Assembly (NCBI RefSeq): GCF_051903065.1
Contig: NZ_CP178442.1
Source: Escherichia coli
GTDB taxonomy: Bacteria; Pseudomonadota; Gammaproteobacteria; Enterobacterales; Enterobacteriaceae
Reading direction: 5' to 3' (one strand)
Length of the DNA stretch: 37,672 nt
Shown here: piece after piece, positions 12,519 to 13,174 of the stretch
Numbering within the stretch: the first letter of the stretch is position 1
Layout: each line of letters opens with the position of its first letter
The notes under the pieces: model-generated
What the model was told of the DNA's origin: nothing
What the model saw: the letters and a program-made list of their open reading frames with translations, nothing else
The model's database searches: none
Translations under genes and position numbers: made by a program

Positions 12519-12610
12519 ACAGATCCCCTTCCTGTGAGTTAAAAATCAAAAGAAGTTTCTCACACCCAAACTAGGGACGCAATTTTTTTTTGTCCCCACA
12601 TAACTAATAA

Positions 12611-12965
12611 ACCATAAATCTGTCCCCTGTTTGAAGAGTCAAACCTGGCTGAACGGCGCATTTTCACCCTCAGTCAGAGGCAGTCAATACAGCAAACCAG
12701 AAGGGAATGCATCATCAAAAACCCATCGAGCCAAACATCTTAAATGTGATCTAAGTCACTAATCCAATTCAGATTCATAGAGAATCCATAACGAATCCGA
12801 GTTGAATCTAAAAAAGTTATCCACAGCCTGTGGATAAAAAAGTTATCCACACTAAATCTGTCCCTAGTTGACCATAAATCTGTCCCCTTTTAACCATAAA
12901 TCTGTCCCCTGATAAAAACGCAAATAACCATAAATCTGTCCCCTTTTAACCATAAATCTGTCCCT
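12611..12965. repeat. replication origin iterons: copies of ACCATAAATCTGTCCCC with 22-bp periodicity (gamma-ori-like)
   Basis: Copies at 12611-12627, 12871-12887, 12893-12909, 12927-12943, 12949-12965, partial copy 12853-12865 and an inverted partial copy (ctagggac) near 12571-12578. Confidence 0.85.
12817..12851. promoter_or_regulatory. cluster of DnaA boxes (TTATCCACA x2 direct plus one inverted, forming ttatccacagcctgtggataa)
   Basis: Exact consensus DnaA boxes at 12817-12825 and 12843-12851 and inverted box 12829-12837, embedded between iterons. Confidence 0.8.
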
Positions 12966-13174
12966 AGTTAGCATTACAATTAATTGAAAAACAAAAGAAA
13001 AAACGGCCCTGAAAAAGGAAATATTATATGTAACATAGGAGTGATCTATCTTTTAGAAAAAAGAAATTAGAAAAAAAGAATAGAGCGCATTGTGAATTTT
13101 TTGAGTTGAAATCAGCAAAATCACAAGATGAGGTCAGACCAGAGCGTACGGATTCATATGCTGCATCGAAGACA

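Follow-up and report, generated by a model that had tools for sequence, protein, structure and literature searches.

The stretch of DNA analyzed here (the window, 37,672 bp) is an entire IncX4 plasmid that differs from pSD11 at 5 bases; the host replicon is a well-known resistance plasmid of the pSD11 type. Identical plasmids are typed as IncX4 by MOB-suite. Identical DNA is found in 34 records, and the origin in about 110, of self-transmissible plasmids of 27-63 kb. Around the gene for its replication initiator, the following features were identified.

11511-12518, minus strand: rep gene, an ORF of 335 aa for a Rep_3-family initiator (WH1 + WH2)
12519-12600, minus strand: rep leader and putative promoter region, read from the minus strand
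12569-12598, no strand: operator-like inverted repeat of iteron 3' halves (AACTAGGGAC ... TGTCCCC), from direct reading
12611-12627, plus strand: isolated sixth iteron, an exact, promoter-proximal copy found in the ACCATAAATCTGTCCCC search and kept in relatives
12755-12812, minus strand: five 11-bp repeats (AGATTCAACTC, GGATTCGTTAT, GGATTCTCTAT, GAATCTGAATT, GGATTAGTGAC), running from DnaA box 1 towards rep
12817-12825 (plus), 12829-12837 (minus) and 12843-12851 (plus): three exact DnaA boxes within 35 bp
12849-12965, plus strand: array of five iterons, starting at 12849, 12871, 12893, 12927 and 12949
12910-12926, no strand: interruption of the array, where iterons 3 and 4 are separated by 17 nt rather than 5
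12970-13090, no strand: AT-rich putative DNA-unwinding element (AT fraction 0.68-0.80, low duplex stability, conservation)
13175-13230, no strand: 56-nt element common to ColE1-type plasmids, from matches to plasmid records and conserved in all relatives

Iterons were sought over the whole window as matches to ACCATAAATCTGTCCCC with up to 3 mismatches, the expectation being taken from shuffles. Seven matches were found where 0.07 were expected; six of them lie on the plus strand inside the interval that the first-pass annotation had assigned to the origin, and the seventh, at 18535, has 3 mismatches and is the sole iteron-like site elsewhere in the plasmid. The copies at 12611, 12871, 12893 and 12927 are exact, the one at 12949 has 1 mismatch, and the degenerate one at 12849 has 3 and shares its first three bases with DnaA box 3. 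Start-to-start spacing is 238, 22, 22, 34 and 22 bp, so that the array has a 3+2 structure split by 12 extra bases and a uniform 22-bp ladder is excluded; Tandem Repeats Finder reported a 22-bp period only at 12853-12915. The earlier count of at least five full, 22-bp-spaced iterons is therefore borne out in number, with six copies of which five are arrayed, but not in regularity. The interruption, GATAAAAACGC, is invariant in the alignment of relatives, and a relative with a Rep 62% identical to that of the window has a spacing of 22/22/34/22/22 with a different iteron sequence. Among close relatives, which are near-identical plasmids, the number of iterons shifts by whole units (2+2, 3+2, 3+3, 3+4). 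Isolated proximal iterons likewise occur in replicons with Reps 36% and 62% identical.

The initiator carries two Pfam domains scoring far above the cut-off, Rep3_N (E=1.6e-33) and Rep3_C (E=5.4e-21), and an additional C-terminal three-helix region at aa 279-333. Among solved structures, its sequence matches RepE (5e-17), pPS10 RepA and pi (6e-11). The AlphaFold model (pLDDT 82.6) superposes on the RepE54-iteron complex with a target-normalised TM of about 0.8 and on the pi-iteron complex 2nra with one of 0.71. In identical plasmids the protein is annotated simply as 'replication initiation protein' (WP_000243325.1). The gene had been called pir, a name that does not hold: Rep is 25% identical to R6K pi over 257 aa, no nearer than it is to F RepE (about 27%), whereas identity to pi reaches 39-57% among the pi-like Reps of other IncX plasmids. 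Even to the pi-like Rep of mcr-1-type IncX4 plasmids, identity is only 29% over 143 aa. Judged by these sequence comparisons, the initiator belongs to a separate branch of the protein family of pi, with iterons of its own, and orthology to pi is not supported.

The exact DnaA box TTATCCACA occurs four times in the window against 0.38 expected, and the three boxes of the cluster abut the rep-proximal end of the array, on the side opposite to the AT-rich region, with box 3 overlapping the first iteron. Boxes 1 and 2, with 3 nt between them, are the arms of a perfect 9-bp palindrome, in agreement with the palindromic arrangement of three consensus boxes described previously. Iterons had also been said to flank this cluster; the array does adjoin it on the right, but on the left there is only the single copy about 190 bp away. 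A replicon with a Rep 36% identical has the same triple arrangement beside different iterons, and relatives with Reps 62% and 54% identical have one TGTGGATAA each, overlapping and abutting the proximal iteron, respectively. The 11-bp repeats next to the boxes show an identity of 0.50 at lag 11 and 0.48 at lag 22, values reached by 258 of 20000 shuffles when any lag from 5 to 22 was allowed. The p35K-type relative has four such units, one fewer, and in the relative with a Rep 62% identical GATT recurs every 11 bp at the corresponding place; on reading the corresponding stretch in the replicons with Reps 54% and 36% identical, the pattern was not seen. We regard these repeats as candidate phased weak DnaA sites.

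Beyond the array, the 60 nt at 13022-13081 rank fifth among the least stable duplexes of the plasmid, thus not first but within the top 0.2%. The AT-rich region includes a conserved block at 13016-13041 and a second at 13043-13066, which is identical in the p35K-type relative, although the origins are 74% identical overall; both blocks are recognizable in the relative with a Rep 62% identical. A 13-mer-like GATCTATCTTTTA lies at 13043-13055, but matches of this kind are suggestive only, because they are expected in T-rich DNA. With the IHF consensus, no exact site and one 1-mismatch site, at 12977, were found.

The 56-nt element matches at least 5000 plasmid records, mostly of small mobilizable plasmids, with 93-98% identity among the matches listed that align at about 13175-13230. 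It coincides with what we take to be the position of the mapped primosome assembly site of ColE1/pBR322. In pN14-1660-a it is located between rop and RNAI, about 80-135 nt past the primer-to-DNA switch as placed from RNAI. ColE1 origins have an ssiA-type primosome assembly site downstream of this switch (PMC3167613). The element is, by sequence and position, a candidate PriA-type primosome assembly site (ssiA / n'-pas-like). As single-stranded DNA, the copy of the window is predicted to fold no better than shuffles (z = 0.3 and 0.1), and that of p35K only weakly better (z = -1.8 and -1.6).

On the other side, ahead of rep, a Shine-Dalgarno sequence (AGGAAGGGG) is present at 12525-12533, and the leader block GTGTGAGAAACTC is invariant among relatives with origins 74% identical. 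Because a sigma-70 consensus scan called nothing at the operator, we infer the rep promoter, the candidate being a -35 TTGCGT at 12576-12581 with a TG-extended -10 GAAACT at 12553-12558, or alternatively GGGACA-17-TAGTTT. The only minus-strand promoter call in the region, at 12687-12660, is not conserved in relatives and was set aside. The inverted partial iteron noted earlier near 12571 is indeed there: AACTAGGGAC at 12569-12578 is the exact reverse complement of GTCCCTAGTT, the end of iterons 1 and 5, and is followed by a direct partial copy, TGTCCCC, at 12591-12597, so that the arms GGGAC/GTCCC are separated by 13 nt. GGGGACGCAATTTTTTTTTGTCCC is invariant in 5/5 aligned relatives while flanking positions vary, and the repeat is perfectly kept in relatives at just 74% identity of the origin DNA. 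An analogous GGGGACA-N10-TGTCCCC precedes rep in a Rahnella plasmid with a Rep 76% identical. Autorepression of rep, as proposed before, is plausible since a half-iteron inverted repeat, invariant in relatives, sits where the rep promoter must be, even though that promoter was not called by the scan.

Read away from rep, the order is thus operator repeat, isolated iteron, spacer, DnaA box(es), 22-bp iteron array and AT-rich region. This order recurs in replicons with Reps 87%, 62%, 54% and 36% identical, and the iterons differ in all but the closest. The combination of a shared order with differing iterons supports function, as it is the pattern expected where Rep and its iterons co-evolve at a functional origin. 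The alignment of relatives shows a clear division between conserved stretches, namely the operator repeat, the iterons, the DnaA boxes, the AT-rich blocks and the ColE1-like element, and the variable spacer at 12630-12740; most of an ORF at 12631-12762 (43 aa) falls in this poorly conserved spacer, and it is therefore not considered a gene. A lenient Rfam search of 11000-15500 returned chance-level eukaryotic matches only, so there is no known regulatory RNA in that interval. An Enterobacterales Rep_3 subfamily comprises E. coli p35K, a Serratia-like contig, pE16EC0256-1, Erwinia pEA29 and Rahnella and Xenorhabdus plasmids, in which Reps are 41-87% identical over nearly their full length, C-terminal extension included. 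Its members have 22-bp iterons with an abutting DnaA box, and their iteron sequences differ from that of the window unless Rep is at least 76% identical. Origin descriptions for this subfamily, including pEA29, were not found in the searchable full-text literature.

Taken together, 12519-13232 very probably serves a theta-replicating iteron replicon as vegetative origin and control region, and the initiator of this replicon is the adjacent 335-aa Rep_3 protein. The iteron-type origin that the first-pass annotation had placed directly upstream of an initiator gene, with host DnaA boxes, is confirmed in its elements, while the proposed extent of 12560-12970 leaves out the AT-rich region and the primosome-site-like element (12970-13232). 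The minimum of the cumulative GC skew, at about 13-15 kb, is near the origin, a value confounded by gene orientation. The origin is an ordinary one, a new example of an iteron-controlled theta replicon with a Rep_3 (PF01051) initiator. The searchable literature on IncX4 and pSD11/pCROD2 yielded no experiments on it, and the general IncX literature was only generic. The direct basis of our reading consists of the sequence elements, their excess over chance, the fold of Rep and the conservation of the layout; every binding and melting step we infer by analogy with F RepE, R6K pi, pPS10 RepA and RK2 TrfA. Rep monomers would bind the five iterons at 12849-12965, and host DnaA the three consensus boxes that abut or overlap the rep-proximal iteron. 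Rep and DnaA might then melt the conserved AT-rich segment beyond the array (about 13016-13090), where DnaB would be loaded, and the ColE1-like element at 13175-13230 may provide PriA-dependent priming. Rep dimers would bind the half-iteron inverted repeat at 12569-12598, overlapping the rep promoter, and thereby repress rep. Copy number might be limited, and incompatibility conferred, by the pairing of arrays (handcuffing) together with the isolated iteron at 12611.

We considered whether the palindromic DnaA boxes serve mainly as a hairpin, either one that loads DnaB on single-stranded DNA, as in the ABC primosome, or an intrinsic terminator that protects rep against transcription arriving through the origin. 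Folding of either strand as ssDNA predicts a 9-bp hairpin (z = -4.9 and -3.7), which on the minus strand is followed by CTTTTTT and was called terminator-like in a scan, and a stronger, 14-bp hairpin occupies the corresponding place in the replicon with a Rep 36% identical (z = -6.4). The loading of DnaB at hairpins containing a DnaA box is established according to PMC6127211, which cites Masai et al. 1990 and Carr and Kaguni 2002. In p35K-type relatives, however, a mismatch in the middle box abolishes the hairpin (-2.4 kcal/mol, z = -0.8), for which reason we reject it as the main role of the boxes; all three boxes are kept there within 1 mismatch of the consensus as duplex sites. Moreover, the palindrome is missing from the relatives with Reps 62% and 54% identical, in which only one box is present, and the T-run is not conserved. 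This explanation thus appears unlikely.

Still less probable is that the main role of the repeats is to titrate Rep and so to govern copy number and incompatibility, as at F incC or P1 incA, with initiation elsewhere. In its favor, two orphan iterons persist in mcr-1-type IncX4 plasmids that lack the cognate Rep, and the rep_cluster_991 plasmids have the complete window-type module, yet the only Rep that they encode is 36% identical. Full copies of the block of DnaA boxes, iterons, AT-rich region and ColE1-like element persist in plasmids without the window Rep, so that presence of the block is no proof of its activity. In the Rahnella plasmid with a Rep 76% identical, copies of the iteron of the window are spread about 67 bp apart, away from any DnaA box, from which it follows that the ACCATAAATCTGTCCCC-type repeat can serve in non-origin arrays. 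On the other hand, the array of the window is contiguous with three DnaA boxes, an AT-rich block and a primosome-site-like element, which have no role in pure titration, and the same composite is kept across divergent Reps. A second array that could be the true origin is absent from the plasmid, in which the one described here is the sole iteron array detected and rep the sole Rep_3 gene.

Comparison with R6K relied on pFL129, a derivative with an engineered pir-proximal region. The window resembles R6K gamma/pi (IncX2) in its 22-bp repeat unit, in an AT-rich segment distal to the initiator gene, as in the gamma core, in an initiator of the same superfamily and fold that also superposes on 2nra, and in a related IncX conjugative backbone family. 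The layout is nevertheless not the classic gamma one that had been claimed: in the gamma core as we read it, the DnaA box lies beside the AT-rich segment, whereas the boxes of the window are on the opposite side, in an RK2-like order, and the seven contiguous iterons of R6K contrast with the 3+2 array. The proposed comparison of iterons with those of R6K and IncX plasmids was not favorable either, since the R6K iteron AAACATGAGAGCTTAGTACGT shares nothing with ACCATAAATCTGTCCCC, while mcr-1-type IncX4 plasmids carry near-R6K iterons (AAACATGAGAGCTTCCTCGG). No similarity links the ORF of the window in the position of bis with the one that follows pir in pFL129, a comparison limited by the engineering of that plasmid. 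Given also the low identities of Rep to pi and to the pi-like Rep of mcr-1-type IncX4 plasmids, the lone degenerate match at 18535 and the use of 'pir-type replicon' for another cluster (see below), an R6K gamma-type origin driven by pi (pir) of the R6K/IncX pir family, possibly with distant alpha- or beta-like origins, is highly improbable. Naming the gene pir or the site 'gamma ori' would transfer knowledge of R6K to a protein with one quarter of its residues in common with pi.

Another known system close to the iteron replicon that we favor is ori2/RepE of F (mini-F). In F, a second array (incC) is found after repE and the DnaA boxes adjoin the AT-rich region; in the window, by contrast, the boxes are at the opposite end of the array, and rep is followed by no further array. 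Its unit is of 22 bp rather than 19 bp, and its Rep, at the overall identity to RepE given above, ends in an additional helical region of about 85 aa. Shared features are a Rep_3 initiator with WH1 and WH2, for which RepE is the best match in sequence and fold among solved structures, direct iterons for monomers, with inverted half-iterons, in the window a putative operator, where dimers would act on the rep promoter, and the presence of DnaA boxes and an AT-rich element. RepE structures include complexes with iteron dsDNA and with unwinding-element ssDNA (PDB 8aan, 8ac8).

With respect to RK2 (IncP), the initiator of the window differs in being a Rep_3 protein, TrfA belonging to a different family, and RK2 iterons are of 17 bp. 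RK2 oriV has DnaA boxes, five iterons and a DUE with 13-mers, in that order (PMC4980987), and the window has the same order of elements. By analogy with RK2, DnaA at the boxes could recruit DnaB, which would later be moved to the melted region.

The position of this origin within IncX4 is best seen against the mcr-1-type plasmid pGS04EC-3, whose backbone is 95% identical at 10332-11447 and 99% identical at 14997-16500. The window segment 11448-14996 is replaced there, in the same backbone slot and with the IncX4 label unchanged, by a module with a pi-like Rep (39% identical to pi) and six R6K-like iterons; the ColE1-like element, two orphan window-type iterons and a DnaA box are kept upstream of its own origin. 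The IncX4 typing primers, in what we take to be their sequences, match exactly at 20299-20322 and 20850-20868, within the relaxase gene taxC, so the label is independent of the origin. Contrary to the suggestion that the origin defines the replicon type, the label thus rests on taxC and spans at least two unrelated Rep/iteron modules, the Rep_3 lineage of the window and the pi-like one. In the literature, mcr-1-harbouring IncX4 plasmids such as pCSZ4 have a pir-type replicon, a term reserved for their cluster (PMC5428312). IncX4 plasmids spread cfr, mcr-1 and ESBL genes, and because their label covers unrelated replicons, what is predicted from the mcr-1 type on incompatibility, curing-by-incompatibility vectors and copy number need not hold for pSD11-/pCROD2-type plasmids.

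Two further, linked ideas build on the favored reading and, taken jointly, are possible though doubtful. One is that the origin has an oriC-like DnaA-binding side, on which the triple box may nucleate a DnaA oligomer along the five 11-bp-phased RGATTC units (12755-12812) towards rep; if so, plasmid initiation or rep expression would be coupled to the DnaA-ATP level of the cell. The other is that the conserved AT-rich and ColE1-like elements may delimit a recombination hot spot in the IncX4 backbone, at which whole Rep-iteron cassettes are swapped. Such a hot spot would leave orphan iterons or whole orphan origins behind, and these could be one-way determinants of incompatibility or copy control between IncX4-labelled plasmids with different replicons. 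The natural series of Rep-iteron pairs (87, 76, 62, 54, 41 and 36% identity), mostly of the same layout, is suited to a study of iteron specificity.

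The iteron-type origin proposed beside rep in the first-pass annotation is supported by a layout that recurs across relatives. Moving outward from rep, one meets the operator, then one or more isolated iterons, a spacer, and the DnaA box or boxes that abut the proximal iteron; the 22-bp array, the AT-rich region, and the ColE1-like element follow. This order is found again in relatives with diverged Reps.

Relatives of the window's origin, with the identity of their Rep to the window's Rep
p35K-type plasmids, Rep 87%: the window's iterons, in arrays of 3+3 or 3+4
Serratia-like contig, Rep 62%: iteron AACCCCGACAGATTAAGGA, spacing 22/22/34/22/22; iteron-DnaA box junction shared; AT-rich blocks recognisable
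pE16EC0256-1, Rep 54%: iteron AACTAGGTACATCTTTACC
pEA29, Rep 41%: 22-bp iterons, then two TGTGGATAA boxes
pRHB39-C17_4, Rep 36%: iteron CCTGAAATCTGTATACC; triple DnaA-box palindrome as in the window

Because the layout is conserved while the iteron sequence changes with Rep, the block is probably a working origin; this constancy, with the repeat tracking the protein, is the strongest support that sequence comparison offers here. On a Rahnella-type plasmid contig (L017, 39-1360), Rep is 76% identical and the same iteron (GGGGACAGATTTATGG) occurs in at least 13 copies at ~67-bp spacing beside parAB; no consensus DnaA box was found near these spread iterons.

Within the window, the 17-mer ACCATAAATCTGTCCCC occurs seven times with at most 3 mismatches, against 0.07 expected, and the plasmid has four exact DnaA boxes (TTATCCACA) where 0.38 are expected. 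The features of the region are as follows.

11511-12518, minus strand: rep, 335 aa, directly left of the origin
12569-12578: AACTAGGGAC, identical in reverse complement to the 3' end of iterons 1 and 5; 13 bases further on comes TGTCCCC in direct orientation
12611, plus strand: isolated iteron
12630-12740: variable spacer
12741-12776: conserved block
12755-12812, minus strand: 11-bp unit, five times in tandem
12817, plus strand: DnaA box 1, exact
12829, minus strand: DnaA box 2, exact
12843, plus strand: DnaA box 3, exact
12849, plus strand: iteron, 3 mismatches
12871, plus strand: iteron
12893, plus strand: iteron
12910-12926: site of a 12-base insertion
12927, plus strand: iteron
12949, plus strand: iteron, 1 mismatch
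13016-13041: AT-rich block
13043-13066: AT-rich block
about 13165-13232: GC-rich element, with the ColE1-like stretch at 13175-13230

The interval thus holds six iteron copies, in line with the five or more first annotated, though not at the uniform 22-bp spacing assigned to them: the steps between starts are 238, 22, 22, 34, and 22. The array is 3+2, plus the isolated copy, and is split by the 12-base insertion, which causes the 34-bp step between iterons 3 and 4. The Serratia-like relative, with another iteron sequence, has the spacing 22/22/34/22/22 as well (L018, insertion at 1098-1109), which suggests that the split belongs to the conserved design; the insertion holds no recognisable IHF or Fis consensus. 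Iteron number differs by whole units between near-identical plasmids. The seventh match, CCCATAAATCCATCCCC at 18535-18551 on the minus strand (3 mismatches), falls on the start or promoter of the toxin gene hicA and is probably due to chance, even with a total of only 0.07 expected.

The three consensus DnaA boxes and their palindrome were confirmed; boxes 1 and 2 form a perfect palindrome, and box 3 overlaps the first iteron. An extra role of this palindrome as a hairpin, in DnaA-dependent helicase loading or as a terminator, is possible, but the hairpin is absent in the p35K-type relatives. From DnaA box 1 towards rep run the 11-bp units, with an RGATTC core and a lag-11 identity of 0.50, a value that 258 of 20000 shuffles attain. 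In relatives the units number four or three, the p35K type having one fewer than the window, and GATT at 11-bp steps recurs where Rep is 62% identical. Weak DnaA sites in oriC are 9-mers 2 bp apart, giving the same 11-bp phase, and the RGATTC units may be phased weak DnaA sites.

Aligned with relatives that have an 87% identical Rep, the origin DNA is only 74% identical, and conserved blocks stand apart from the variable spacer. Conserved are a candidate extended -10 block, GTGTGAGAAACTC; the operator repeat; the isolated iteron; 12741-12776; the DnaA boxes, all iterons, and the 12-base insertion; the AT-rich blocks, including the 13-mer-like GATCTATCTTTTA; and the GC-rich element. The block at 12741-12776 (AAATGTGATCTAAGTCACTAATCCAATTC) lies inside the otherwise variable spacer and holds a small palindrome, GTGA-N6-TCAC; no known site was recognised in it. 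On the rep strand, one AT-rich block is CTCCTATGTTACATATAATATTTCCT, with the palindrome-like TATGTTACATA inside it, and the other is TTTCTTTTTTCTAAAAGATAGATC; their conservation is well above background and they are still recognisable with a Rep 62% identical. By duplex stability in 60-nt windows, the AT-rich stretch ranks fifth-lowest in the plasmid.

The GC-rich stretch at 13175-13230 (56 nt) has matches in at least 5000 plasmid records, most of them ColE1-like plasmids that are small and mobilizable, with 93-98% identity among the matches listed that align it. It is kept in all relatives of this origin, with three copies in pRHB39-C17_4, and its predicted hairpins are not significant. One matching plasmid has it between rop and RNAI, ~80-135 nt beyond the inferred primer-to-DNA switch. 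In pBR322 the ssiA site lies at about that position, and 13175-13230 presumably corresponds to the mapped site. Downstream of their switch, ColE1 origins have a primosome site, ssiA/n'-pas (PMC3167613). With AT-rich blocks and ColE1-like element conserved beyond it, the interval 12560-12970 first assigned is too narrow; the origin includes more.

On the model of RepE, pi, RepA, and TrfA (review PMC4980987; PDB 8aan, 8ac8), Rep monomers would occupy the five iterons and DnaA the three boxes, the AT-rich segment beyond the array, as seen from rep, would melt, and DnaB would be loaded; the ColE1-like element may contribute PriA-dependent priming. The inverted partial iteron annotated near 12571 is indeed present, as AACTAGGGAC, and the autorepression suggested for it is plausible on the same model, with dimers of Rep repressing rep from the half-iteron inverted repeat. 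In its order of DnaA boxes, iterons, and unwinding element, the origin resembles RK2 oriV (PMC4980987), whereas in the R6K gamma core compared here the DnaA box adjoins the AT-rich segment. The cumulative GC skew minimum at 13-15 kb agrees with an origin here but is confounded. A locus serving purely for titration is unlikely, since the array is joined to DnaA boxes, an AT-rich block, and a primosome-site-like element and is the only one in the window. An R6K/pir origin, as first annotated, fails on both protein orthology and iteron sequence.

Rep, immediately adjacent as annotated, carries Pfam Rep3_N and Rep3_C. Its sequence matches the solved structures of F RepE (E 5e-17; ~26-27% identity), pPS10 RepA, and R6K pi (E 6e-11; 25% identity), and an AlphaFold model (33 homologues; pLDDT 82.6) superposes on RepE54-iteron complexes (target TM ~0.8) and the pi-iteron complex (0.71). 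Weak identity to pi, together with these sequence and fold matches, makes Rep a Rep_3 iteron initiator but no pi orthologue. Homologues 34-88% identical occur throughout Enterobacterales, every one named just 'replication initiation protein'. A C-terminal extension (residues 250-335; window 11511-11765), unaligned to RepE or pi, is conserved across the subfamily; it includes an extra three-helix region at 279-333, with helices confidently predicted, after a proline-/arginine-rich linker with the invariant residues P263, P266, R271, P272, E281, and W284.

The window is a complete circular plasmid of 37,672 bases. Once rotated and reverse-complemented, it matches pSD11 (KM212169), an E. coli plasmid from swine that carries cfr, at all but 5 positions. 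The 782 bases around the origin are 100% identical in ~20 plasmids among the matches listed, including Citrobacter rodentium pCROD2. Three full records (pSD11, pYUYZVE78-cfr, and pCROD2) are typed 'IncX4, MOBP, MPF_T, conjugative'. The IncX4 typing primers match exactly at 20299-20322 and 20850-20868, within the taxC relaxase gene and outside the replication region. One IncX4 label can therefore cover two replicons; it is independent of the replicon and is not determined by this origin, which had been claimed to define the replicon type. The result has some practical bearing on plasmid typing and incompatibility.

A search with pi found that the 33-kb mcr-1-type IncX4 plasmids encode a different, pi-like Rep, 39% identical to pi and only 29% identical to the window's Rep over 143 aa. 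It is preceded by six iterons, AAACATGAGAGCTTCCTCGG; the proposed iteron comparison with R6K and IncX plasmids thus places the nearly R6K sequence there and not in the window. Against one such plasmid (L005, NZ_CP079775.1), the backbone is 95-99% identical at 10332-11447 and 14997-16500 and differs over 11448-14996: the replication module is swapped between two IncX4 lineages in an otherwise alike backbone. The window's version also brings a RelE/ParE-type toxin-antitoxin pair (13884-14406). IncX4, previously divided into two clusters with the mcr-1 cluster termed 'pir-type' (PMC5428312), covers more than one replicon.

Upstream of their R6K-type iterons, the mcr-1-type IncX4 plasmids also keep a degenerate window-type origin (L005, 2184-2500), with the ColE1-like element, orphan iterons at 2311-2326 and 2444-2459, and one exact DnaA box. 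This composite occurs in ~349 plasmid records, and the orphan origin could titrate window-type Rep. Two tandem origin modules are found in rep_cluster_991 plasmids (L012, CP057060.1, 880-1280 and 2000-2400; L013, NZ_CP122693.1): their own origin (CCTGAAATCTGTATACC five times), then a complete window-type module with DnaA boxes, 4-5 iterons, AT-rich region, and ColE1-like element, and no window-type Rep. In pRHB39-C17_4, examined in full, the 36% identical protein is the sole Rep_3 protein. The core ACAGATTT is common to both iteron types of the rep_cluster_991 plasmids.
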